Positions 6,172-47,525 of a DNA stretch of 64,000 nucleotides are shown here, piece after piece (position 1 is the first letter of the stretch; each line of letters starts with the position of its first letter). Source of the stretch: a bacterium (lineage in GTDB: Bacteria; SAR324; XYD2-FULL-50-16; G965216635); contig OZ253454.1 in assembly GCA_965261475.1 (NCBI GenBank), positions 543,813 through 607,812 on the forward strand. Reading direction: 5' to 3'. The notes below the pieces were generated by a model. It was not told the origin of the DNA and did no database searches. It was given only the letters and a program-made list of their open reading frames with translations. Made by a program: the position numbers and the translations under genes.

Positions 6172-7515
6172 ATGAATAATAAAATGATTTATACTCTAAA
6201 GGATAAGCCTCCTTTTCGTTTGGCATTAGTTGGTGCAATACAGCATGTATTGGCTAGTTTTGTGGGGGTCATTACTCCTACCCTAATTATTGGTGGTGTA
6301 TTAGGGCTTGGCAGTGAAATTCCTTATTTAATTAGCATGGCTTTGATAGTATCTGGTGTTGCTACTTTTATTCAAGTCCGTAGAGTAGGTCCTATTGGCT
6401 CGGGGCTACTCAGTATTCAAGGTACTAGCTTTGCTTTTTTGAGCTCTGTGCTAGCAGCAGGATTTATTGCTAAATCTAAAGGTGGAGGACCTAATGAAAT
6501 TATGGCACTTATTGTAGGTGTTTGTTTTTTTGGTGCCTTTATAGAGATTGCATTAAGCCAAGTATTGCCTTATTTAAAAAAAATTGTTAACACCACAGTC
6601 ACTGGCGTTGTTATTCTTACCATTGGGCTCTCTTTAATAAAAGTAGGCATTACAGATTTTGCAGGAGGTGTAGGAAGTGATGATCTAGGAAGTTATAGCA
6701 ACTTATTTTTGGGATTTATAGTTTTAATAGTGATTTTATCGCTTACTTTAGTTAAAAACAATACTCTAAAAATATCTTCTATATTTATAGGCATGCTGGT
6801 AGGTTATATTGTGGCAATTTTTATGGGAAAAGTCAGTTTTGCTGCATTTGGTGCACAAGAATTGATTGCTATACCTATTCCATTTAAATATGGGTTTGCT
6901 TTTGATTTAGCTGCTTTTATACCTATTGCGTTTATTTATTTCATAACAGCTATTGAAAGCATGGGAGACTTGACTGCAACTTCCTTGCTATCTGACGAAC
7001 CTGTAGCAGGTGATGTCTATATGAAAAGAATTAAAGGCGGTATTTTAGGAGATGGAGTAAATTCTTTGATTGCATCTGTGTTTAATACTTTTCCTAACAC
7101 AACGTTTAGTCAAAACAATGGAGTAATACAAATGACGGGTATTGCTAGTCGTTATGTAGGCTATTTTATTGCTGCTATTTTTGTAATTTTAGGGTTGTTT
7201 CCTGTTATTGGAGGAGTAATGCAAACTTTGCCAAAATCTGTTTTAGGAGGAGCAACGATAGTGCTTTTTGGCTCTATTGCTGTTGCAGGAATTAGAATTT
7301 TAGTTACTGAAAAAATAGATAAAAGAAAAGCAATTATTATTGCTACTTCTTTAGGGTTTGGTATAGGTGTTTCTGTTGTTCCTGATATTTTTAATGTTAT
7401 TAAAGAAGCGGGCGTAGTAGGAAAACTGATCTATTCTGTTTTTAGCTCAGCTATTACTACATCTGGCATTACTGCTATTATTTTGAATTTGTTTTTACCA
7501 CAAATTACAGAATAA
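6172..7515 (+). CDS. NCS2-family nucleobase permease (xanthine/uracil/urate permease)
   Basis: 447 aa, about 12 TM, typical NCS2 organisation and motifs (PbuX/UraA/UacT-like). Sits at the head of the urate-catabolism genes. Confidence 0.85.
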   Translation: MNNKMIYTLKDKPPFRLALVGAIQHVLASFVGVITPTLIIGGVLGLGSEIPYLISMALIVSGVATFIQVRRVGPIGSGLLSIQGTSFAFLSSVLAAGFIAKSKGGGPNEIMALIVGVCFFGAFIEIALSQVLPYLKKIVNTTVTGVVILTIGLSLIKVGITDFAGGVGSDDLGSYSNLFLGFIVLIVILSLTLVKNNTLKISSIFIGMLVGYIVAIFMGKVSFAAFGAQELIAIPIPFKYGFAFDLAAFIPIAFIYFITAIESMGDLTATSLLSDEPVAGDVYMKRIKGGILGDGVNSLIASVFNTFPNTTFSQNNGVIQMTGIASRYVGYFIAAIFVILGLFPVIGGVMQTLPKSVLGGATIVLFGSIAVAGIRILVTEKIDKRKAIIIATSLGFGIGVSVVPDIFNVIKEAGVVGKLIYSVFSSAITTSGITAIILNLFLPQITE

Positions 7516-7606
7516 AAGATAGTATAAGTCAATCTTTTTAATTGAACTTAAATTAACTCAAGTCAAATATATTTTTTTTGAGTATTGTTATATTGACTCT
7601 TGTTTG

Positions 7607-7622
7607 TGTATCGCAAGATACA
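7607..7622 (+). promoter_or_regulatory. Inverted repeat with GNRA-type loop (TGTATC-GCAA-GATACA) in the permease-uraD spacer
   Basis: 6-4-6 palindrome 19 nt before the uraD ORF start. A TTGACT hexamer at 7593-7598 sits 8 nt upstream. Candidate operator overlapping a promoter for the uraD-hiuH-puuD-puuE genes, or an RNA hairpin. Confidence 0.35.
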
Positions 7623-7640
7623 AAATAGATAAAAATACAA

Positions 7641-8144
7641 ATGCTACTTTCTTTTAATCAATCTAAAAAAACAGCAATGACAAGGTTTCTTGATTGTTGT
7701 GCTTGTAAAAAATGGGCGCAAAAAATGCTTATCCATTTGCCATTTGCTAGTTTAGATGAGTTATGCGAGGTAGCAGAATCTGAGTGGTTTGCACTAGAGC
7801 AAACAGATTGGCTTGAAGTTTTTAAAACACACCCCCAAATAGGTGAGGTCAAAAGTAGTGCTCAAAAATCGGTTTCTACAACCCATATTAGATGGAGTAG
7901 GGATGAACAAGCGCAGTTAAAACAATCTCATAGGTTAGTGCTCGCTGAGCTAACAAAACTAAATCAAGAATATTTAAAAAAATTTAGTTTTATTTTTATT
8001 GTTTGCGCTACTGGTAAAAACGCCAAAGAAATGCTGAGTATTTTAAAACTCAGATTAAAAAATTCTTATCAAACAGAAATCCAAAATGCTGCTGTGGAGC
8101 AGCATAAAATAACTATAATACGTCTTAAAAAATTGATACTATGA
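7641..8144 (+). CDS. uraD: 2-oxo-4-hydroxy-4-carboxy-5-ureidoimidazoline (OHCU) decarboxylase
   Basis: ...DWLEVFKTHPQIGE... (HPxIG motif) and FIFIVCATGKNAKEMLSILKLRL...ITIIRLKKL match the UraD/PucL family over the full length. The true start may be the internal Met (MTRFLD..., nt 7677). Confidence 0.8.
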   Translation: MLLSFNQSKKTAMTRFLDCCACKKWAQKMLIHLPFASLDELCEVAESEWFALEQTDWLEVFKTHPQIGEVKSSAQKSVSTTHIRWSRDEQAQLKQSHRLVLAELTKLNQEYLKKFSFIFIVCATGKNAKEMLSILKLRLKNSYQTEIQNAAVEQHKITIIRLKKLIL

Positions 8145-8485
8145 GAAGTCAAATTACTACACATATTTTAGATATTGCTGTTGGCAAACCAGCCTCAGGA
8201 GTAAAAGTTATACTCTTTATTAAGCAAGAAGAGTCTTGGAAAGAATTAGCTCATAGTTTTTCTGATATCAATGGAAGAATAGAAGATTTATTGAGTAGTG
8301 ACATTCAAATATTATCTGCTACCTATAAACTAGTATTTTTTCCAGGAGATTATTTTCAAAAGAACAATAGAAAATGTTTTTACCCGAGTATTAGTGTTTG
8401 TTTTGAAATTATAAACACTAAACAACATTACCATATACCTCTACTATTGAGTGGATTTGGCTATAGCACTTATAGGGGTACTTAA
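8141..8485 (+). CDS. hiuH: 5-hydroxyisourate hydrolase (transthyretin-like)
   Basis: ITTHILDIAVGKPASGVKV... N-terminus and the C-terminal YRGT tetrapeptide (YRGS in most HIUases). 114 aa. Start overlaps the uraD stop (ATGA). Confidence 0.85.
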   Translation: MRSQITTHILDIAVGKPASGVKVILFIKQEESWKELAHSFSDINGRIEDLLSSDIQILSATYKLVFFPGDYFQKNNRKCFYPSISVCFEIINTKQHYHIPLLLSGFGYSTYRGT

Positions 8486-8511
8486 CAAGTTTTACAAAGA
8501 AAAACAAAATA

Positions 8512-9723
8512 ATGTTAGATTTATTGGTAGTAGATTGGGCAAGTTGGCTCAATTTAGCTCTTCGTTGGTTTCATATTATAGCTGGCATTGCTTGGATAGG
8601 AGGATCTTTTTATTTTATTTGGCTAGATCATAGCCTACTACTTCCAGAAGAAAAAAACGAGCAAGAAAAAGGAATTTTAGGGGAAGTTTGGTCTGTGCAT
8701 GGAGGTGGTTTTTATCGCTCTGTTAAGTTTTTAAAAACACCAAAAGAATTACCAGAAAAGCTGCATTGGTTTAAATGGGAAGCATATACTACCTGGATTA
8801 GCGGTTTTTTACTTTTTATTCTAATTTATTATTTAAACGCACAAATTTATTTAATAGATCTAGATAAATTCCAACTTACTTCTAGTCAAGCTATTTTGAT
8901 TAGTTTGGCATTATTGATTATTAGTTATTTGATTTATGATTTGTTATGTAGGTTTGTACAAGAAAAATTTCCTATTATTTTCGGTGTAAGCTGTTTTTTC
9001 TTTATTACAGCACTAGCTTATGCTTTAGTACAAGTTTTTTCAGATAGAGCTGCGTTTTTACATTTTGGTGTAGTTATTGGCAGTATTATGGTTGGCAATG
9101 TATTTTTTATCATTATTCCTAACCAAAAAAAAATTATGAATGCACTTTTAAAAGGAGTCACTCCTGATAGTTTGTTAGGAAAAATGGGAAAAAATCGCTC
9201 TGTCCATAATAATTATCTTACGCTTCCTGTTATTTTTACTATGATTAGCGGGCATTATCCGCTAACTTTTTCTCATCCTTTTAATTGGGTTTTGTTAGTG
9301 ACTATTACTTTTTTTGGAGCTTTTATTAGGCATTATTTTAATCTCAAGCACCAAAGAAAAAAATCTCTTTGGGTCCTTGTTATTTCTTTTTTTACAATGC
9401 TTGTTGGTATTTATCTAATAGAAACCACTAGAGACGAAGAAACAGTAGCAGGATCAGAGATTATAAAAATAGAACAGGTGCAAACAATTTTTGCTAACAG
9501 ATGTCTAACTTGCCACCGCGCCAATCCTACTTTTACGGGATTGAGTGAACCTCCCGGAGGAATTAGTTTTGAAAAATATGCAGAAATCCAAAAGAGAACA
9601 AAGGAAATTTACGAACAAGTTGTGCTCGCTAAAGTTATGCCATTAGGGAATATCACAGGAATGAGCGATGAAGAAAGAAAAGTTATTGCTAAATGGATAA
9701 ATCAAACCAATCAAACAAAGTAA
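8512..9723 (+). CDS. puuD: Membrane-bound urate hydroxylase PuuD (cytochrome c type)
   Basis: N-terminal membrane domain WLNLALRWFHIIAGIAWIGGSFYFIWLDH plus C-terminal haem-c motif (ANRCLTCH = CxxCH), the PuuD architecture. Confidence 0.8.
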   Translation: MLDLLVVDWASWLNLALRWFHIIAGIAWIGGSFYFIWLDHSLLLPEEKNEQEKGILGEVWSVHGGGFYRSVKFLKTPKELPEKLHWFKWEAYTTWISGFLLFILIYYLNAQIYLIDLDKFQLTSSQAILISLALLIISYLIYDLLCRFVQEKFPIIFGVSCFFFITALAYALVQVFSDRAAFLHFGVVIGSIMVGNVFFIIIPNQKKIMNALLKGVTPDSLLGKMGKNRSVHNNYLTLPVIFTMISGHYPLTFSHPFNWVLLVTITFFGAFIRHYFNLKHQRKKSLWVLVISFFTMLVGIYLIETTRDEETVAGSEIIKIEQVQTIFANRCLTCHRANPTFTGLSEPPGGISFEKYAEIQKRTKEIYEQVVLAKVMPLGNITGMSDEERKVIAKWINQTNQTK

Positions 9724-9726
9724 ATT

Positions 9727-10659
9727 ATGAAAGATTACGATAGAGATCTGAGAGGCTACGGTCAAACACCACCTAAAATAGAGTTGCCCAAACAAGCACG
9801 TATTGCAGTGCAATTTGTGCTTAATTACGAAGAAGGAGGTGAGAATTGTATTTTACATGGAGACCAAGCATCAGAAAAATTCTTGTCTGAAATTGTAGGG
9901 GCAGATGCTAGAGATGCTGTTCGTCATATGAACATAGAATCCATTTATGAATATGGTAGTAGGGTAGGATTTTGGAGAATTTTACATATGTTCCAAGAAA
10001 GAGGATTACTTGCTACTATTTTTGGAGTTGCTATGGCAATGGAAAGAAATTCTAGAGCAATAGAAGCTGCTATGAAACAAGATTGGGAGATAGCATCTCA
10101 CGGCTATAGATGGATAGAGTATCAATATTTTAGCAGAGCAGAAGAAAAAGAGCATTTAGAAAAAGCCATCGAGATTCATACGAAAATCACAGGAAGCGCA
10201 CCTCAGGGGTGGTACACGGGTCGCACTAGCCCCTATTCTAGAGAGTTAACTGCAGAAAATGGTAGTTTTTTGTATAATTCTGATAGTTATGCTGATGAGC
10301 TTCCTTACTGGGAAAAAATAAAGAATTTACCACCACAGCTTATTGTACCTTATACTTTAGATGCCAATGATATGAGGTTTGCTACTCCTCAAGGATTTAA
10401 TAGTGGGGAACAATTTTATCAATATTTAAAGGATTCTTTTGATTATCTTTGGATGGAAGGAGCAACAATACCTAAAATACTCTCTGTTGGTTTGCACTGT
10501 CGTTTAATTGGAAGACCGGGAAGAGCATTGGCATTGGCTCGTTTTTTGGACTATATTACAGCTAAAGAGAAAGTATGGGTTTGTAGGCGTGTAGATATTG
10601 CTAAATTATGGCGGACACAATTTCCTTATCAAAATCAGGATGAATTTTCTAAATTTTAA
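9727..10659 (+). CDS. puuE: Allantoinase PuuE (polysaccharide-deacetylase-family, metal-independent)
   Basis: Very close collinear match to Pseudomonas PuuE (...FVLNYEEGGENCILHGD...HGYRWIEYQY...GWYTGRTSP...). Confidence 0.9.
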   Translation: MKDYDRDLRGYGQTPPKIELPKQARIAVQFVLNYEEGGENCILHGDQASEKFLSEIVGADARDAVRHMNIESIYEYGSRVGFWRILHMFQERGLLATIFGVAMAMERNSRAIEAAMKQDWEIASHGYRWIEYQYFSRAEEKEHLEKAIEIHTKITGSAPQGWYTGRTSPYSRELTAENGSFLYNSDSYADELPYWEKIKNLPPQLIVPYTLDANDMRFATPQGFNSGEQFYQYLKDSFDYLWMEGATIPKILSVGLHCRLIGRPGRALALARFLDYITAKEKVWVCRRVDIAKLWRTQFPYQNQDEFSKF

Positions 10660-32711: not shown

Positions 32712-33095
32712 CTAAGCTATGACAGCTTCTGCTCCAGTAGCTTTTAGTTTTTTAACAATTTCTTCTGCCTCTTCTTTGTTTACTCCTTCTTTAATTTTTG
32801 TGTTATCGCTAGCAGATTCTACTAAGTCTTTAGCTTCTTTTAATCCCAAAGTAGGATTTAAAGCTCTAATTTCTTTGATAACAGCAATTTTATTTGAACC
32901 AAAAGTTTTTAAAATTATATCAAATTCAGTTTTTTCTTCGGATTCTTCAGCAGGAGCACTGCTAGCCTCAGGAGCAACAGCTACCGCAGCAGCATTAACT
33001 CCAAATTTTTCTTCTAATTCTTTGACTAATTTTGATAATTCCAAAACAGACATGCTGGAGATATGTTCAATTAGTTGATCTTTTGTTATAGCCAT
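32712..33095 (-). CDS. rplL: 50S ribosomal protein L7/L12
   Basis: [33 protein letters not shown]... with Ala/Glu-rich hinge and conserved CTD ([10 protein letters not shown]). Confidence 0.95.
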
Positions 33096-33236
33096 TTTAT
33101 TTATATTGTATAGTAAACATTCGAATTAACTACTTATTATCATTTATGAAGATTGTATTTTACTGACTACAATGTCCTTGATAAATAAAATAAATAGTAA
33201 TTAGCGGTTAAGCTTAAAATTTCAAAAGTTTAAATG

Positions 33237-33764
33237 TTATTTATTTTTAGAGATTTTTGCTAACAGTCTTACAAAGCTAGCAGGTACCTCATTAACAGTT
33301 CTAATAAAATTGGTTAGCGGAGCATTCATTAAGTAGAGTAACTTGCTGAGTAACTCTTCTTTGGTATCCAATTTGCTCATAGCTACCACTTCATCTTCGC
33401 TGAGGAAAGTTGTTTTTTTATTTTCTAAAAAAAAGCCACTTACTATTTGACATTGCTCCATATCTTTGAGTTGTTCGCAAATAAGTTTTGCTAAGGACAC
33501 CATATCTGCACTAGTATAAACCAGAGCTCTAGGATCAGATAAATCTTGCCTAGCTTCTGCAAATAGGCTAGAAGTAAGTGCTTTTTTTGCAATCCTATTT
33601 TTAAGAACCTTGAGTGAAGATTTTTCTATTGCAAGTTTTTTTCTAAACTCTGTGATTTCAGCAACATTAGTACCTTTGTAATCTAAAAGTATTCCAGCAG
33701 AAAGGTTTGAAAAAATTTTGCTGTACTCAGCTAATAATTTTTCTTTATTTTTACGAGTTATCAA
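33237..33764 (-). CDS. rplJ: 50S ribosomal protein L10
   Basis: 175 aa L10-family protein directly upstream of rplL. TTG start as called, preceded by AAGAGGT SD. Confidence 0.85.
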   Translation of the reverse strand: MITRKNKEKLLAEYSKIFSNLSAGILLDYKGTNVAEITEFRKKLAIEKSSLKVLKNRIAKKALTSSLFAEARQDLSDPRALVYTSADMVSLAKLICEQLKDMEQCQIVSGFFLENKKTTFLSEDEVVAMSKLDTKEELLSKLLYLMNAPLTNFIRTVNEVPASFVRLLAKISKNK

Positions 33765-34001: not shown

Positions 34002-34841
34002 TTACTCTTTTGGTCTAATTCTTAAAAATACAGGAAATCTAGGAATTCCATTTTTTGTAAATGATTGATAACGAAAGGTAATTTTGCTACCAATAGGCGG
34101 AGGGTTTTTTCTTTGCGTATCTGTAAGCCCACTACCGATAAAAAAAATTACTCCATCATCGTTTTCTACTTTTAGAGAGCCTACCATATTTTTTAACCTG
34201 CCTTTACCTTTTTTATATCCTAAGACTTTGGCTTCTGCATCTAGATATTGTTTGAGTTTTAATAGATCATTGCTACGACCGTGTTTATAAAAAGCACTTT
34301 TTTTATGTAACATTAAACCTTCACCGCCTTTAGCAATAATTTTTTCAAATTGATGCATTAATACTACATTATTTTTTACTGATGATTGTTCAACTACTGC
34401 TAGATATGAAGAATTAGCTTGATGTACAATAGTTCGTATTTTTTGCGCTCTAGTTTCAAAATTACTTTTTTCTAGTGGTAAGTCAAAAACCCATAGTTTG
34501 AGTGATTTCCACGCTTCATGCGCGTCTTTCTTATTGACTATAGACGATATTTGAGCAAAATCACCCCTTTTAGACCATAGTTCTCCATCTAGTGTTTCTT
34601 GAGGAAAATTGGCTGTAAACCAAAAAGGTGCAGCGAATATTTTTGAGTTACGAGATCTTAGATTTTTGCCATCCCAGCGAGCCCGTACGCCATCTAGTTT
34701 TTCGCTAACTAAATATTCTCTAACATCTATATCAGCATGGTAGACTTTAGCTAGCATTAAATTTTTTTTATCAGATCCAAATAACGATGTTATGAGCGTT
34801 AATGAAAAGATAAAAAATAGTAGTAATTTTCTAATTTTCAT
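34002..34841 (-). CDS. ligE: LigE-type minimal ATP-dependent DNA ligase, periplasmic (signal peptide)
   Basis: Start at internal Met (MKIRKLLLFFIFSLTLITSLFGS is a signal peptide). Motif I KLDG (SEKLDGVRA), motif III LDGELW, motif IV EGLMLHK, motif V LLKLK. 279 aa, NTase plus OB domains only. Confidence 0.8.
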   Translation of the reverse strand: MKIRKLLLFFIFSLTLITSLFGSDKKNLMLAKVYHADIDVREYLVSEKLDGVRARWDGKNLRSRNSKIFAAPFWFTANFPQETLDGELWSKRGDFAQISSIVNKKDAHEAWKSLKLWVFDLPLEKSNFETRAQKIRTIVHQANSSYLAVVEQSSVKNNVVLMHQFEKIIAKGGEGLMLHKKSAFYKHGRSNDLLKLKQYLDAEAKVLGYKKGKGRLKNMVGSLKVENDDGVIFFIGSGLTDTQRKNPPPIGSKITFRYQSFTKNGIPRFPVFLRIRPKE

Positions 34842-34955
34842 ATATTGGTATTTTTTGTTACAACTTAGCTTATCTTCGTCAATTTTTTTATCATTTTTTA
34901 ATCTAAAATTGATCTTTATGTTTTTACCAATTAGCATGTGATACGTTTAATAATT

Positions 34956-36671
34956 TTAAGATTGTTTTTCTTCGACTAAAGTTAATCTGATCCATTCACT
35001 AAGTGTAGTTTTGCCAGATAAAACTTTTTCAGCACAGTGGTAGATTAGTGTTTTCATTCCTTCTCTAATAGCTATTTGTTTAACTTTTTCTGCGTAGAAG
35101 TTTTGCGATATAGCTTGACGAATCTCAGAGCTATTGTTGAGTATTTCATAAATTCCATCTCTACCAGCATATCCCGAATGAAAGCAATTTTGACAACCAT
35201 TACCCTTATATAGTTGACCTTTGAAGTTTTTAAGTAAATCCTTTGGAAAACTTTCTTGCAGTAGTTCTTCTTTGCTAATTTTATAGCTTTGTTTACAGTC
35301 ATTACAAATAGTGCGAATTAGTCTTTTAGCGATAGCTGCTGTAAAGGTGCTAGCTATAAGAAAAGGCTCTATGCCCATATCTATGAGGCGAGTAATGGTA
35401 GAAGCGGCGTCGTTAGTATGTAGTGTGCTAAAAACTAAATGTCCTGTTAGCGAGGCTTGGACAGCTATTTCTGCTGTTTCTTCGTCTCTTATTTCTCCTA
35501 TCATAATAACATCAGGGTCTTGTCTTAAAACAGAGCGCAAACCATTAGCAAAGGTTAAACCTATTTTTTCGTTGACCTGTACTTGACCTAATCCTTCTAA
35601 TTGGTATTCTACAGGGTCCTCAATGGTAATAATATTTTTTTCATTGCTATCTAATTTTTCTAAACAAGCATAAAGCGTAGTTGTTTTACCGCTGCCTGTA
35701 GGTCCAGTTATCAATACAATTCCATGTGGTTGCTGAATAAGTTGTGTAATATTTTTTTGCATTGCTTGATCTAGTCCAAGGTTTTCTAGGGTTAGAGTAT
35801 CTATCTTGTTATCTAAAATACGCAGCACCACCCTCTCTCCGTGCATGGTAGGTAAAATAGAAATACGAATATCTATTTTTTCTCCTCCTAGATGAATTGT
35901 GATCCTCCCGTCTTGCGATTTACTTTTAGTAGAAATATCTAAATTAGACATTACTTTTAGGCGATTTACTGTGGGGTTGTGTCCGTATTTTGGAAATTTT
36001 GTAATCTCTTGCAAACTGCCATGTATACGAAATCTGACTACGCTGTTGCTTCGTTCTGGATCTATGTGTATGTCAGAAGAGCTTCTTTTAACTGCCTGAA
36101 AAATTAGAGAATTGACTAAACGAATCACTGGCTCTTCGTTTCTACTATCTAATAATTCTGTAATTTCTTCTAGGTTCATCTCACTAAGTTCGGTAAATTC
36201 TTTATTTTTATCTAATGTTTCTAAGGCTTCTTCTGTTGTGCCTGTTCTGTCGTAGATGGTGCTTAGAGTTTCTTGAATAACTCTAGCAGGCGTAAGAGCT
36301 AAAACTGGCTCTGCATCAAAGTGCTCTGCTATCCACTGATAGAGATCTTCGTTGATAGGCTCTGTGACTGCAATATATAATTTTTCTTTTTCTTTTCTAT
36401 AGGGCAAAAGCAAAAAATCTAAAGCCTTATGATAAGGTATTAGTTTGGTGAATTTTTGTATAATTTGTGAATTTTTTTGTTTTAAGTCTTGTTTATATTC
36501 TAATCCTAGGTATTTTGATAAAAGTTTGAGATATTTAGTTTCGGTAATTGCACTATTTTTTTTTTGTAATTCTGCTAAATTTAATTTTCCATCGGGAGAA
36601 TAATAAGTTAGTAACTCCGTTTCAGATCTGTTTGTTAGCTCTGATAAACTTACTAAAAATTTTTTATCCAT
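34956..36671 (-). CDS. PilB/GspE-family secretion/pilus-assembly ATPase
   Basis: 571 aa. N-terminal GspE_N-like domain. Walker A GPTGSGKTT, Asp/His boxes, tetracysteine motif (CNDC...CQNC). Confidence 0.85.
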   Translation of the reverse strand: MDKKFLVSLSELTNRSETELLTYYSPDGKLNLAELQKKNSAITETKYLKLLSKYLGLEYKQDLKQKNSQIIQKFTKLIPYHKALDFLLLPYRKEKEKLYIAVTEPINEDLYQWIAEHFDAEPVLALTPARVIQETLSTIYDRTGTTEEALETLDKNKEFTELSEMNLEEITELLDSRNEEPVIRLVNSLIFQAVKRSSSDIHIDPERSNSVVRFRIHGSLQEITKFPKYGHNPTVNRLKVMSNLDISTKSKSQDGRITIHLGGEKIDIRISILPTMHGERVVLRILDNKIDTLTLENLGLDQAMQKNITQLIQQPHGIVLITGPTGSGKTTTLYACLEKLDSNEKNIITIEDPVEYQLEGLGQVQVNEKIGLTFANGLRSVLRQDPDVIMIGEIRDEETAEIAVQASLTGHLVFSTLHTNDAASTITRLIDMGIEPFLIASTFTAAIAKRLIRTICNDCKQSYKISKEELLQESFPKDLLKNFKGQLYKGNGCQNCFHSGYAGRDGIYEILNNSSEIRQAISQNFYAEKVKQIAIREGMKTLIYHCAEKVLSGKTTLSEWIRLTLVEEKQS

Positions 36672-38169
36672 TTTTTTTATATTGGAAAGTTGCTATAGAA
36701 ACTATACATAAAAATAATATATAAAACAATAACCAGTCATTGAACACAGAGTTTTTCTGCCAAGAAATAACAGCAAAATTGCTTAAGTCAAAGTTTTTTT
36801 CCATTGTCCAGTACCATATGTCACTAATTTTTTGTACTAATAAAAAGTAATACTGTGCTAATCCTAATGGAATAAAGAAAAATCCTGCTAATACGGTAGG
36901 TAAATATATAAAACCCATAAAAAAAATATGAAAAGGGTTGTTTACAAAACTCAGTAGATTTAATTTATGAAAATAGATTAGAGTTAAAGGGGCAGTAAAA
37001 AAGTTAATGAATAATGTGAGCATGGCTGTTTGGAAAAATTTTTTGTATAAAAGAAGCAAAGATGCAGGCGAAAAATTTGTCCATTTACCAAAAACTAAAA
37101 TTGCGAATACTGCTAAAAAAGAAAATTGAAAACTCAAAGAGAAAACAATAGCAGGCTGCAGTAGAATCATCAACAAGGCTGTAATACATAAAACATAAAT
37201 AGCAGGTATCCAGTTAAATAAGTGACGTATAGCTATCCAAATAGCTAGCATTACCCAAGCTCTCACAGCAGTAATAGGGAAAACTATAAAATCTAGGTAA
37301 AACCAAACTACTAACACAGAAAGTAAATCTGATTCTAAGAGGCTAGATTTTTGTTTTTTTATGAGTAGCAATAGTATGTTAAGCAATTTACTGAGTAAAA
37401 AATGCACCCACAAAAAAATCATTCCAATATGTAGTCCAGAGATTGCAAATAAGTGAAAAATACCTAATGCAGAAATTTTATGACGCAAATCTCTAGATAA
37501 ACTACTTCTATCTGATAGTGCGATGCCTTGATAAATTTCTTTTGCTTTTCCTGCTAAGTAATAGTTACTTTTGTTTTTCCAATCTTGCCATAGCGAGCTT
37601 CTTTTCTCCCTTAGGATTTTATGTTTTGTAGAAAAGAATTTTGTTTGTGGTGTACTTTCGAGTAGCCAATTATTTTCTTTATAGGTTATTTTAGGGTAGA
37701 TAATGCGAATTTTTTCTCCAGCATAAACAGGAATATATTGTTTTTTGGTAGTTAAGATAGCTGATGCAATGGTATATTTTTGTTCTTTACAAAAAATCTT
37801 TATTTGTGAAAGCAATAAATATTTTTGAGTTTTTTTGTTGATATTTGCCTCTAAAAATTCTGGAGTTTGTTTACATAGCTGTAATTTTGTAAGTGTAATT
37901 TTTGGAAAAAGAAAAGCATAATTAAGGACCAAACAAGCAATCAATAACCCTATAAAAAACAATCTTTGGGGACAAAAAATTATACCACACAAACAACATA
38001 GTAAAAAAATAATTAGCTGGTAGGTAAACCAATTAGCAGATTGATAAAATACCCAAAAAAAACTAGAGCAAAGAATAAAAATTAGTAAAAATCTCCAATC
38101 TCTACAACAAACAAGTATTTTTAACAAAAATTGACACACATTTATGCTATTGAAGAGGCTCATCAACAA
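36664..38169 (-). CDS. comEC: DNA internalisation channel ComEC/Rec2, short form without metallo-beta-lactamase domain
   Basis: 501 aa. N-terminal TM and OB (DUF4131) region, then competence domain with ALGIFHLFAISGLHIGMIF. The protein ends without an HxHxDH beta-lactamase domain. 3' end overlaps the pilB-like start by 8 nt. Confidence 0.8.
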   Translation of the reverse strand: MLMSLFNSINVCQFLLKILVCCRDWRFLLIFILCSSFFWVFYQSANWFTYQLIIFLLCCLCGIIFCPQRLFFIGLLIACLVLNYAFLFPKITLTKLQLCKQTPEFLEANINKKTQKYLLLSQIKIFCKEQKYTIASAILTTKKQYIPVYAGEKIRIIYPKITYKENNWLLESTPQTKFFSTKHKILREKRSSLWQDWKNKSNYYLAGKAKEIYQGIALSDRSSLSRDLRHKISALGIFHLFAISGLHIGMIFLWVHFLLSKLLNILLLLIKKQKSSLLESDLLSVLVVWFYLDFIVFPITAVRAWVMLAIWIAIRHLFNWIPAIYVLCITALLMILLQPAIVFSLSFQFSFLAVFAILVFGKWTNFSPASLLLLYKKFFQTAMLTLFINFFTAPLTLIYFHKLNLLSFVNNPFHIFFMGFIYLPTVLAGFFFIPLGLAQYYFLLVQKISDIWYWTMEKNFDLSNFAVISWQKNSVFNDWLLFYILFLCIVSIATFQYKKNG

Positions 38170-45098: not shown

Positions 45099-47525
45099 AT
45101 GCCTTATAATCCAAAAAGAATTGAACCTAAATGGCAAGAATATTGGAAAAAAAATAAAACGTTTCAAGCTAAAATCGATAAAAAAAAGAAAAAATTTTAC
45201 TGCTTAGATATGTTTCCCTACCCTTCTGGCAGTGGATTGCATGTGGGGCATCCAGAAGGCTATACAGCTACGGATATTTTTTGTCGCTACAAAAGAATGA
45301 GAGGTTGGAATGTTTTGCATACTATGGGATGGGATGCCTTTGGACTACCAGCAGAACAATATGCAATCAAAACAGGAATTCATCCTGCTAAAATCACTAA
45401 AAAAAATATTGATTACTTTAGGAAACAAATTCAATCTTTGGGATTTTCTTATGATTGGGATCGAGAGTTAAACACTACAGATCCTAATTATTACAAGTGG
45501 ACCCAGTGGATTTTTTTAAAACTTTATAAAAAGGGGTTAGCTTATCAAGAGGAAGCTCCGGTTAATTGGTGTCCAAACTTAAAAGCAGTACTCTCTCATG
45601 AGGAAGTTGAAAATGGACTTTCTGTGGAGGGCAGTCATCCGGTTTACCAAAAGAACTTAAGGCAATGGAAATTAAGAATTACAAAATATGCTGACGCATT
45701 ACTAGAAGGTTTAGCAGAGTTAGACTGGCCACCAGCAATTATAGAGATGCAAAAAAATTGGATTGGTAAATCTTGTGGAGTCAATGTTAAATTTGGTGTT
45801 CAAGATAGTGAATTATTTTTTGATGTTTTCACAACTAGGGCAGACACACTTTTTGGAGTTACTTATTGTGTGCTATCTCCAGAGCACCCACTTTTAAAAA
45901 AAATTATTTCTTTCAAATATCAAGCACAAGTTACTGCCTATCAAAAGCAGAGCGCTAGTAGAAGCGAAAGAACAAGAATGGCGCAGCAAAAAGAAAAAAC
46001 AGGTGTTTTTACTGGTAGTTTTGCTATTAACCCGATCAATAATTCTGTTATTCCTATTTGGATTGCAGATTATGTACTTATGGGTTATGGCACAGGAGCA
46101 ATTATGGCAGTACCAGCGCATGATCAAAGAGATTATGAGTTTGCAAAAAAATTTAATTTGAATATCAAAGAAGTAATTGCAGGTGGCAATATTACAAGAG
46201 CAGCATATAACAAAAAAGGTCAGCTTATAAATAGCGGTTTTGTGAATGGTATGAGTAGTGATAACGCAATTCGAAAAGTAAGAGCTTATTTAGTCAAAAA
46301 TAACCTTGGGGTTGAGCAAATAAATTATAAGCTCAGAGATTGGCTTTTTTCTCGTCAACGCTACTGGGGAGAGCCTATTCCAATCTTATTGGATGCCAAC
46401 TACAATTCTTACCCTTTAGCTGAACACGAATTGCCTTTATCTTTGCCTCAAACAGATTCTTTTCTTCCCCTAGCTAATGGAGAAAGCAGCTTAGCAAAAA
46501 TAAAATCTTGGGTAGATGTCAGCAAAGATGGCAAAGAATTTAAAAGAGAGACTAACACTATGCCGCAATGGGCTGGGAGTTGTTGGTATTATTTACGTTT
46601 TGTTGATCCTAGTAATTCTAAGCAAGCTTGGTCTCAAGAAGCAGAAAATTATTGGATGCCAGTAGATCTTTATGTAGGCGGTTCAGAGCACGCTGTCTTG
46701 CATCTTCTATATGCAAGGTTTTGGCACAAAGTACTGTATGATTATGGTTTGGTGCATACCAAAGAACCTTTTAAAAAATTGGTAAATCAAGGTATGATTT
46801 TGGGTCCAGACGGACAGAAAATGTCTAAATCTAGGTGCAATGTTATTAATCCTGAAGATATTATTGACGAATATGGAGCAGACTCTCTAAGGTTGTACGA
46901 GATGTTTATGGGTCCTTTAGAAAAAACAAAACCTTGGCAAACTAATGGAGTAGAAGGCATTTTTCGTTTTTTAAATAAGGTTTGGATTAGTTTTTTAGAC
47001 ATTGAGAGCAATTTACTTCCCTCTATTCAAGATATTAGCCCTAGCAAAGAAGATAAGGCTAAACTACATTACGCCATTAAAAAAATTACTAATGACCTAG
47101 AAGAGCTGAAGTTTAATACTGCTATTTCTGAGCTGATGGTATTTATAAACTATTTTTCTAAAAGAGAAGTAAAAGCTCGAGAAGTAGTAAAAACTTTTAC
47201 ATTGCTACTTTCTCCTTTTGCCCCTCATTTAGCAGAGGAGCTTTGGGAATTACTTGGTTATAAGAATAGTCTCGCCTATCATGTTTGGCCAAGTTATAAT
47301 GATAAATATCTAGCAAGCAAGATGTATATTTTACCAATTCAAATTAACGGCAAGGTACGCTTTAAAATAGAGGTAGCTAAATCAAGCACTAAAGAGCAGT
47401 TAATAGATAGGATCAAAAAAGAAAATAGTTTGCAAAAATACTTTAGAGGGCAAGAGATTAAAAATGTAGTTTTTGTGCCTGAAAAGATTATCAATTTTAT
47501 TGTTGTCTCAGCTAGTACAATTTGA
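45099..47525 (+). CDS. leuS: Leucine--tRNA ligase
   Basis: 808 aa. HIGH region (PYPSGSGLHVGH), KMSKS, editing domain, typical LeuRS N-terminus MPYNPKRIEPKWQEYW. Confidence 0.95.
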   Translation: MPYNPKRIEPKWQEYWKKNKTFQAKIDKKKKKFYCLDMFPYPSGSGLHVGHPEGYTATDIFCRYKRMRGWNVLHTMGWDAFGLPAEQYAIKTGIHPAKITKKNIDYFRKQIQSLGFSYDWDRELNTTDPNYYKWTQWIFLKLYKKGLAYQEEAPVNWCPNLKAVLSHEEVENGLSVEGSHPVYQKNLRQWKLRITKYADALLEGLAELDWPPAIIEMQKNWIGKSCGVNVKFGVQDSELFFDVFTTRADTLFGVTYCVLSPEHPLLKKIISFKYQAQVTAYQKQSASRSERTRMAQQKEKTGVFTGSFAINPINNSVIPIWIADYVLMGYGTGAIMAVPAHDQRDYEFAKKFNLNIKEVIAGGNITRAAYNKKGQLINSGFVNGMSSDNAIRKVRAYLVKNNLGVEQINYKLRDWLFSRQRYWGEPIPILLDANYNSYPLAEHELPLSLPQTDSFLPLANGESSLAKIKSWVDVSKDGKEFKRETNTMPQWAGSCWYYLRFVDPSNSKQAWSQEAENYWMPVDLYVGGSEHAVLHLLYARFWHKVLYDYGLVHTKEPFKKLVNQGMILGPDGQKMSKSRCNVINPEDIIDEYGADSLRLYEMFMGPLEKTKPWQTNGVEGIFRFLNKVWISFLDIESNLLPSIQDISPSKEDKAKLHYAIKKITNDLEELKFNTAISELMVFINYFSKREVKAREVVKTFTLLLSPFAPHLAEELWELLGYKNSLAYHVWPSYNDKYLASKMYILPIQINGKVRFKIEVAKSSTKEQLIDRIKKENSLQKYFRGQEIKNVVFVPEKIINFIVVSASTI

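Follow-up and report, generated by a model that had tools for sequence, protein, structure and literature searches.

Why does a bacterium export a DNA ligase? Lig E has long been enigmatic: the compartment to which this DNA ligase is exported was believed to contain neither DNA nor ATP. According to published surveys, it also has no informative gene neighbourhood, in contrast to Lig B, C and D. Here, we analysed a ligE gene that directly follows comEC, which encodes the channel for DNA import, and a gene encoding an ATPase of the GspE/PilB family. The locus lies in a stretch of 64,000 nucleotides (nt) of contig OZ253454.1 (assembly GCA_965261475.1, positions 543,813 to 607,812), hereafter the window, from an uncultured SAR324 bacterium of low GC content (about 31%) and small genome (about 1.5-1.6 Mb). 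The original prediction, made from the letters of this stretch, took the gene order as support for a role of the ligase in processing incoming DNA, and the question is whether this holds. We favour, at slightly better than even confidence, the view that this locus encodes the core of an apparatus for DNA uptake in which the exported Lig E repairs the incoming duplex before its import by ComEC. The gene order itself recurs in two relatives, and is confined to their clade. The relevant features, in window coordinates and with lengths in amino acids (aa), are the following.

36664..38169, minus strand: short comEC, 501 aa from a TTG start, PF03772 at 125 bits

36664..36671, minus strand: 8-nt overlap of the comEC stop and the ATPase start, sequence AATGGATAA

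34956..36671, minus strand: predicted assembly ATPase of the GspE/PilB family, 571 aa, T2SSE domain at 439 bits and MshEN N-terminal domain

34842..34955, minus strand: AT-rich spacer of 114 nt, from the ATPase stop to the ligase start at Met33

34002..34841, minus strand: ligE, minimal ATP-dependent DNA ligase, 279-aa precursor with nucleotidyltransferase (NTase) and OB_2 domains only

34776..34841, minus strand: signal-peptide-like leader, ligase residues 1-22, MKIRKLLLFFIFSLTLITSLFG

34689..34700, minus strand: ligase motif I, KLDG, with the adenylation lysine K48 of the precursor, codons AAA CTA GAT GGC

The three minus-strand genes of the original prediction were all recovered as open reading frames (ORFs) where it had placed them, and the ligase start was then revised to 34841. 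The 8-nt overlap of comEC with the ATPase gene, which it had described, can be seen in the sequence and is found again in an independent gene call on L001; it is consistent with translational coupling. An alternative gene caller starts comEC at 38127, giving a protein of 487 aa. A terminator scan revealed no terminator-like hairpin in the intervals between comEC, the ATPase gene and ligE. No clear Shine-Dalgarno sequence was seen in the spacer before ligE (34842-34955), and the promoter scan was uninformative in such AT-rich DNA, with 26 sites found for 28.6 expected. Given this spacer, co-transcription of the three co-directional genes would be possible, but is not implied.

The ligase has the architecture of Lig E, as had been predicted. 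It matches the Lig E-type equivalog of NCBIfam (NF006592, PRK09125) with 362.7 bits for a cut-off of 200, over profile positions 8-282 of 283. Its Pfam domains are DNA_ligase_A_M (PF01068) and DNA_ligase_OB_2 (PF14743) alone, at residues 73-308 of the 311-aa ORF, without any accessory DNA-binding domain in Pfam. The protein can be aligned over its whole length with the crystallised enzymes of entries 4D05 (E=3.5e-76), 6GDR and 8U6X. Motifs I (KLDG, at 48), III (DGELW, 85), IIIa (FDLP, 119), IV (EGLM, 174) and V (LLKLK, 193) are intact, and their columns are invariant in the alignment of 31 homologues. The 311-aa ORF opens at an ATG at position 34937, which is almost certainly not the real start of the gene, since an alternative gene call (P0122, 279 aa) starts at its Met33, position 34841, and so do the homologues and the model of the family. 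Because the ligase starts at Met33, the gap between the ATPase and ligase genes is 114 nt and not 18. An exact-sequence look-up returned no record for the ATPase or for the ligase starting at Met33, the 311-aa ORF being the only form on record.

From the revised start, the translation reads as an N-terminal leader (MKIRKLLLFFIFSLTLITSLFG followed by SDKK), with an n-region, MKIRK, that contains three K/R and no acidic residue, a 16-residue hydrophobic core (mean Kyte-Doolittle value of 2.9 over the best 12-mer), and the polar SDKK next to it. The constructs of crystallised mature Lig E match from residue 26-28 onward, the mature window ligase (~257 aa) would equal 4D05 in length, and 29 of the 31 homologues have a leader at the equivalent position. 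Both the leader-like N-terminus and the adenylation lysine (K48), whose absence had been named as evidence that would count against the proposal, are present. We infer that the leader is cleaved and that the enzyme is exported to the periplasm, a compartment that is plausible in this host because the window encodes the diderm markers LpxK, a SurA-like and a PpiD-like protein.

The ATPase carries Walker A (GPTGSGKTT) and Walker B motifs, Asp and His boxes and a tetracysteine zinc motif (CNDC...CQNC), which can be read in the translation together with DPDVIMIGEIRD and TGHLVFSTLHTNDA, and it matches PF00437 with 439 bits. These motifs mark a predicted ATPase of the assembly type (GspE/PilB/ComGA), as opposed to the PilT-type retraction ATPases. 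The protein scored 596.9 on the GspE profile TIGR02533 (cut-off 630.25), 530.8 on the PilB profile TIGR02538 (675.65) and 273.3 on the ComGA profile (300), and its matches in the PDB are GspE 4PHT with 417 bits and PilB 6OLJ with 392 bits. By its sequence it is nearest to GspE, yet below every equivalog cut-off, and would belong to no single subfamily. The family given in the original prediction was right. The name PilB is too specific, because the ATPase scores nearer to GspE and below all equivalog cut-offs, and because a sister genome, described below, links comEC to pseudopilins of the GspG type.

The ComEC of the window is short. Its only family match is Competence PF03772 (125 bits, cut-off 23), at residues 218-490, and it scores 85.3 bits on TIGR00361, below the cut-off of 190. 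The ComEC structure 9VC6 of the PDB matches residues 194-451 only, which is the transmembrane (TM) region. The protein ends at the channel domain, with no Lactamase_B match in Pfam. In the AlphaFold2 (AF2) model, of mean pLDDT 73, N-terminal TM helices are followed by a beta-rich domain at ~105-180 and a helical channel that extends to the C-terminus. Foldseek matched the beta domain to OB-fold DNA-binding domains (probability at least 0.99, E about 1e-3, domain-level matches), and a search with the whole model retrieved no full ComEC structure, the OB-like domain alone being matched; this domain is thus present by structure prediction only. The sequence departs from the canonical three-domain ComEC (OB/DUF4131, Competence and metallo-beta-lactamase nuclease) and would be a variant of the 'C' or 'DC' profile. 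As it has no nuclease domain, some other nuclease would have to degrade the strand that is not imported.

One may ask whether so short a ComEC and its neighbour are relics that play no role in transformation, in which case the cluster would not be a DNA-uptake module. ComEC homologues are indeed far more widespread than demonstrated competence (PMC6299819), the one studied here lacks the nuclease domain and is below the cut-off of TIGR00361, and the window offers no ComEA, DprA, secretin or pilin gene. This last observation agrees with the original prediction, which had reported no other competence gene in the window: Pfam on essentially all window ORFs of at least 110 aa, a prepilin-motif scan, the small ORFs in gaps and phmmer with the pseudopilins of a relative as queries revealed no further pilus, secretin, ComEA, DprA, pilin or other competence gene. 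We nevertheless find it very improbable that these genes are relics. All three ORFs are intact, the HLFAISGLH motif is invariant among 12 lineage ComEC homologues, and the conservation of motifs across homologues only 38-63% identical to the window ComEC argues for purifying selection. Furthermore, ComECs with the Competence domain alone work in the naturally transformable Campylobacterota. The 'C' and 'DC' profiles are common, and they are the dominant ones in several groups, including Campylobacterota, Aquificae and Chlamydiae (PMC6299819).

To what extent is the gene order shared? A homologue search showed that the genomes with this short ComEC form a small uncultured clade, whose loci (designated by L numbers) have the following gene orders.

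L084: comEC, ATPase, ligE, rplJ, rplL, aminotransferase

L085: comEC, ATPase, ligE, serine dehydratase

L086 and L002, on one 1.46-Mb contig: comEC, ATPase, serine dehydratase, then after about 15 kb priA (minus strand), ligE, rplJ, rplL

L088: comEC, ATPase, CcrM-like methyltransferase, contig end

L089 and L090: comEC, 276-aa ORF, ATPase

L087: infC, rpmI, rplT, gspG, gspH/I/J-like genes, comEC, with no ATPase

L003, from the same sample as L087: recO, methyltransferase, ligE

The pairing of comEC with the ATPase gene was found in six of the seven lineage loci and is a robust feature of the clade; in five of these loci the two genes overlap or lie a short distance apart (a 4-nt overlap in L085 and gaps of 34-96 nt in L084, L086 and L088). 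The complete trio was found in the window, L084 and L085, with differing flanking genes, and the AT-rich spacers between the ATPase gene and ligE measure 114, 77 and about 139 nt, respectively. The adjacency, which might have turned out to be unique to this genome and not enriched, is hence not unique; outside the clade it is absent from all loci surveyed, as detailed below. In L084 and L085, the trio is found at identities of only 55-60% (ComEC), 75-77% (ATPase) and 63-64% (ligase). Pairwise identities between the genomes with the trio are 55-60% for ComEC, 75-81% for the ATPase and 63-68% for the ligase, and indicate that these genomes span the core of the clade rather than one tip group. 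The trio is absent in a more basal genome (L089), and breakpoints lie both before and after ligE. These contexts are most simply explained if the ancestor of a core, family-level clade had the trio, if at least three species kept it, and if it was broken at least once.

Several genes near these loci were considered as candidates for a missing ligase or for an older gene order. The 276-aa ORF of L089 and L090 (L089:6351-7181, L090:3394-4224) was rejected as a divergent ligase, since it matches no Pfam or NCBIfam family and, by phmmer, no Lig E. The 328-aa ORF that follows the ATPase gene in L088 was also rejected, being a CcrM-like DNA methyltransferase, with a RAMA domain (L088:13550-14533). 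L087 has an orthologue of it (52% identity, L087:4423-5514), next to a HinfI-like endonuclease and some 5 kb from comEC, and a different N6/N4 methylase precedes ligE in L003 (L003:9042-9980). An ancestral order of ATPase, methyltransferase and ligE was rejected because the methyltransferases of L088 and L003 are only 29% identical and not orthologous. The clade appears to be rich in restriction-modification genes. Two ligase calls differ at their 5' ends. The one of L085 is truncated, as an in-frame MKKFFFLCGLIF lies upstream of it. In L002 (9954-10000) the ligase is called from a TTG without a leader, and an ATG-initiated leader, MKK..., lies one frame off at an A6/T11 homopolymer, likely by an indel error of long-read sequencing. 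We did not use L171, a 12.8-kb contig with a more distant short ComEC, because it is laden with repeats and most likely arose artificially, as a palindrome or chimera, during assembly: it has four Competence-domain genes (three of 362 aa, one of 503 aa), direct and inverted repeat blocks, and amidase fragments at both ends.

The position of the host was assessed with its leucyl-tRNA synthetase (LeuRS, window 45099-47525). The relatives of this protein, at 68-77% identity, include contigs of 1.46, 1.55 and 2.39 Mb, and the nearest named matches, at ~60%, carry the labels 'Proteobacteria bacterium', 'SAR324 cluster bacterium' or Bacillales. By this marker, the host is predicted to belong to a deep uncultured lineage.

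We then compared this clade with the neighbourhoods of Lig E in other lineages. An alignment-based scan of species-representative genomes provided 80 loci with 44-56% identity to the window ligase. They are the most similar to the query among roughly 590 or more in such genomes, and they leave out the classic hosts Neisseria, Haemophilus, Vibrio and Campylobacter. Together with two closer metagenomic loci, the flank survey covered 82 loci and 1.38 Mb (57 loci of at least 15 kb), in which six-frame ORFs were compared with the window ATPase and ComEC within +/-10 kb. For the reverse comparison, a metagenome scan anchored on the short ComEC gave 80 diverse ComEC loci (968 kb), whose best match has 30% identity and which include no close relatives. 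An ATPase of the T2SSE family lies within 10 kb of comEC in just two of these 80 background loci, and directly adjacent to it in none.

These surveys, and several observations within the clade, weigh against a functional reading of the locus. Neither ComEC nor a T2SSE ATPase occurs within +/-10 kb in any of the 82 other Lig E loci, and Lig E is missing from all 80 ComEC loci. No neighbour recurs broadly near Lig E, the best cluster of ORFs within 4 kb being found in 7 of 80 loci. In the clade itself, ligE has been displaced by ~15 kb in L086/L002, the genome most closely related to the trio-bearing L085, and it is unlinked from comEC in L087/L003. The adjacency of ligE and the functionally unrelated rplJ (window, L084, L002) is as frequent as that of the ATPase gene and ligE (window, L084, L085). 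The spacers of 77-139 nt before ligE leave room for an independent promoter, and among 12 lineage regions no cis-element is shared upstream of comEC, ligE and gspG, only AT-rich low-complexity matches. Concerning export, the predicted cleavage site of the ligase, between LFG and S, is non-canonical (Leu at -3), and the leader was read by a heuristic n/h/c layout. Finally, the host is uncultured and its competence is a prediction from its genes. With this small sample, inherited synteny and selected linkage are not distinguishable, and phylogenetic inertia fits equally well. The linkage of comEC, ATPase gene and ligE is not general among Lig E and is confined to the clade of the window. What stands of the claim that the synteny supports a role with incoming DNA is a weak recurrence limited to one lineage, without counterpart in the 82 Lig E and 80 ComEC loci.

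The same observations are what one would expect if the arrangement were a historical accident, with ligE merely sitting between comEC-ATPase and rplJ-rplL in the ancestor of the clade and Lig E acting elsewhere, e.g., on the extracellular DNA of biofilms. The literature is compatible with this explanation, as a published survey found no common synteny for Lig E (PMC7470946) and a biofilm phenotype of Lig E has been described (PMC10799422). We regard such an accident as a possible account, but as a less probable one. The trio survives although the flanks were rearranged on both sides. Experiments tie Lig E to transformation (bioRxiv 10.64898/2026.03.22.713542), and Lig E is part of the competence regulon of H. 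influenzae, as reported by a paper citing VanWagoner 2004.

The clade also provides indications on the machine to which the ATPase may belong. In L087, downstream of infC-rpmI-rplT, a gspG gene and then genes for GspH/I/J-like minor pseudopilins lead directly into comEC (L087:7970-11476); this gspG matches TIGR01710 with 126 bits, for a cut-off of 89. Hence, two independent links, the overlap of the ATPase gene with comEC and the gspG/H/I/J-like genes abutting comEC in L087, point to a pseudopilus of the type II secretion system (T2SS) type that would serve DNA uptake. They may also be read as traces of true type II secretion, with Lig E as a cargo that is exported by Sec and then pushed across the outer membrane onto extracellular DNA. 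The ATPase scores highest against the models and structures of GspE, a true gspG accompanied by GspH/I/J-like genes is present in the sister genome, and the leader of Lig E is of the Sec type, like those of T2SS substrates. Such a secretion system nonetheless seems unlikely to us. The coupling of the ATPase to comEC and the pseudopilin genes that abut comEC in L087 are hard to square with pure secretion, no gene for GspD, GspF, GspC, GspL or GspM was seen in any lineage locus that we fetched, and the ATPase does not reach the equivalog cut-off of GspE.

Under the DNA-uptake reading that we favour, the GspE-like ATPase would most likely power a pseudopilus of the T2SS type that brings double-stranded DNA into the periplasm, where Lig E, exported by Sec, would seal nicks and cohesive breaks of the incoming duplex. 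ComEC, the inner-membrane channel for single-stranded DNA, could then pass longer single strands without interruptions into the cytoplasm. The sealing of nicks before ComEC was proposed by the Williamson group in 2020 (PMC7470946) and tested in 2026 (bioRxiv 10.64898/2026.03.22.713542). In the latter study, Lig E raised the transformation of N. gonorrhoeae when the DNA was nicked or had cohesive ends, and made no difference when it was intact. The role of Lig E, which the original prediction had called unsettled, has therefore since been addressed by experiment. DNA uptake by a pseudopilus, the co-expression of the three genes and the functional coupling of ligE to uptake are what we would expect of this host, and the last of these would seem to draw mainly on the experiments published for other species and not on the synteny of the locus.

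A bolder proposal is that the clade rebuilt a T2SS-type pseudopilus into a DNA-uptake machine, fused its genes into comEC operons, and recruited the periplasmic ligase to the same transcription unit, forming an 'import-and-repair' operon. We put this forward as a tentative idea and a rather doubtful one. If it were true, the operon would be the first evidence from genomic context that Lig E is an integral accessory of transformation, and would represent an exaptation of T2SS to competence outside Campylobacterota and Firmicutes.

The surroundings of the locus are those of a chromosomal region with housekeeping genes: an ArgE-like deacylase upstream, and rplJ-rplL, a tRNA-Leu and an aminotransferase downstream. 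The GC content is uniform across the window (0.30-0.33). We rejected an origin from a mobile element or prophage because of this uniformity and of the housekeeping genes on both flanks. The rplJ-rplL pair (window 32712-33764, and also in L084 and L002) is detached from its usual neighbours rplK-rplA and rpoB-rpoC, and is bordered by ligE on one side and by the tRNA-Leu and aminotransferase genes on the other. The 237-nt region 5' of rplJ has no Rfam L10 leader at the gathering threshold. Elsewhere in the window, positions 6172-10659 hold a compact cluster for urate degradation, with a permease of the xanthine/uracil family, an OHCU decarboxylase, a transthyretin-like HIU hydrolase, a protein of the Urate_ox_N family, and a protein of the polysaccharide-deacetylase family that may be PuuE-like.

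The three proteins are all ordinary representatives of known families, and the idea that Lig E has to do with competence is decades old and now has experimental support. What is new is the physical position of ligE after comEC and a GspE-like ATPase gene, an order of which we found no report in the literature searched, and the fusion of gsp-type genes into comEC operons in an uncultured clade. The window and two relatives thus provide a counter-example to the uninformative neighbourhoods of Lig E, since ligE directly follows the genes for the DNA-import channel and its motor. They give independent, non-experimental support to the 2026 model of nick repair before import, as a supportive context and not as a discovery, and show that a GspE/GspG-type apparatus can be genomically joined to ComEC. 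The value of the locus is limited in that it concerns one uncultured clade, is statistically indistinguishable from inherited synteny, and bears on a function already addressed in N. gonorrhoeae. Our survey also bears on the distribution of Lig E, which has been described as restricted to Gram-negative proteobacteria (bioRxiv 10.64898/2026.03.22.713542). Lig E-like genes extend well beyond Proteobacteria: the survey loci (L004-L083) come from Nitrospirales/Nitrospirota, Nitrospinota, Vicinamibacteria, Entotheonella, Poribacteria, Lentimonas (Verrucomicrobiota) and Flavobacterium/Crocinitomicaceae (Bacteroidota), as well as from Gammaproteobacteria and Desulfobacterota.

How does the locus compare with known systems? 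The Lig E of Psychromonas sp. SP041 (4D05), of Alteromonas mediterranea (6GDR) and of N. gonorrhoeae (Ngo-Lig E) have the same NTase and OB_2 core, the same motifs and a leader. The window ligase differs from them by its host, which is outside the classic beta-, gamma- and epsilon-proteobacterial ones, by the non-canonical cleavage site of its leader, and by its position directly after comEC and a GspE-like ATPase gene, whereas surveys found no conserved synteny (PMC7470946). The competence regulons of H. influenzae and V. cholerae likewise link Lig E (historically 'ligA') to DNA uptake. To the extent that the available accounts of these regulons describe it, the link there is regulatory, with a competence element upstream of a separately placed gene, whereas in the window it is one of physical adjacency. 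A further parallel is the comG/comE system of B. subtilis, where an assembly ATPase and a pseudopilus feed ComEC; the window ATPase reaches 273 bits on the ComGA model, for a cut-off of 300. The ComG pseudopilus (ComGA and ComGC-GG) would be analogous to the uptake pseudopilus proposed here. B. subtilis, a monoderm, has no periplasmic ligase, its ComEC shows the complete DUF4131-Competence-Lactamase_B arrangement, and ComEC and ComGA are encoded in separate operons. In Campylobacter, to our knowledge, comEC, ctsE and ligE are not adjacent; in the window, comEC and the ATPase gene overlap. The likeness to this genus is one of system type. The T2SS/type IV pilus-like Cts system of Campylobacter jejuni, which has the GspE-like ATPase CtsE and works together with a short ComEC, uses a T2SS-like ATPase and pseudopilins for DNA uptake in a diderm (PMC10046745). 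Moreover, the ComEC with a Competence domain alone is dominant in Campylobacterota (PMC6299819), and Campylobacter carries Lig E (PMC7470946).

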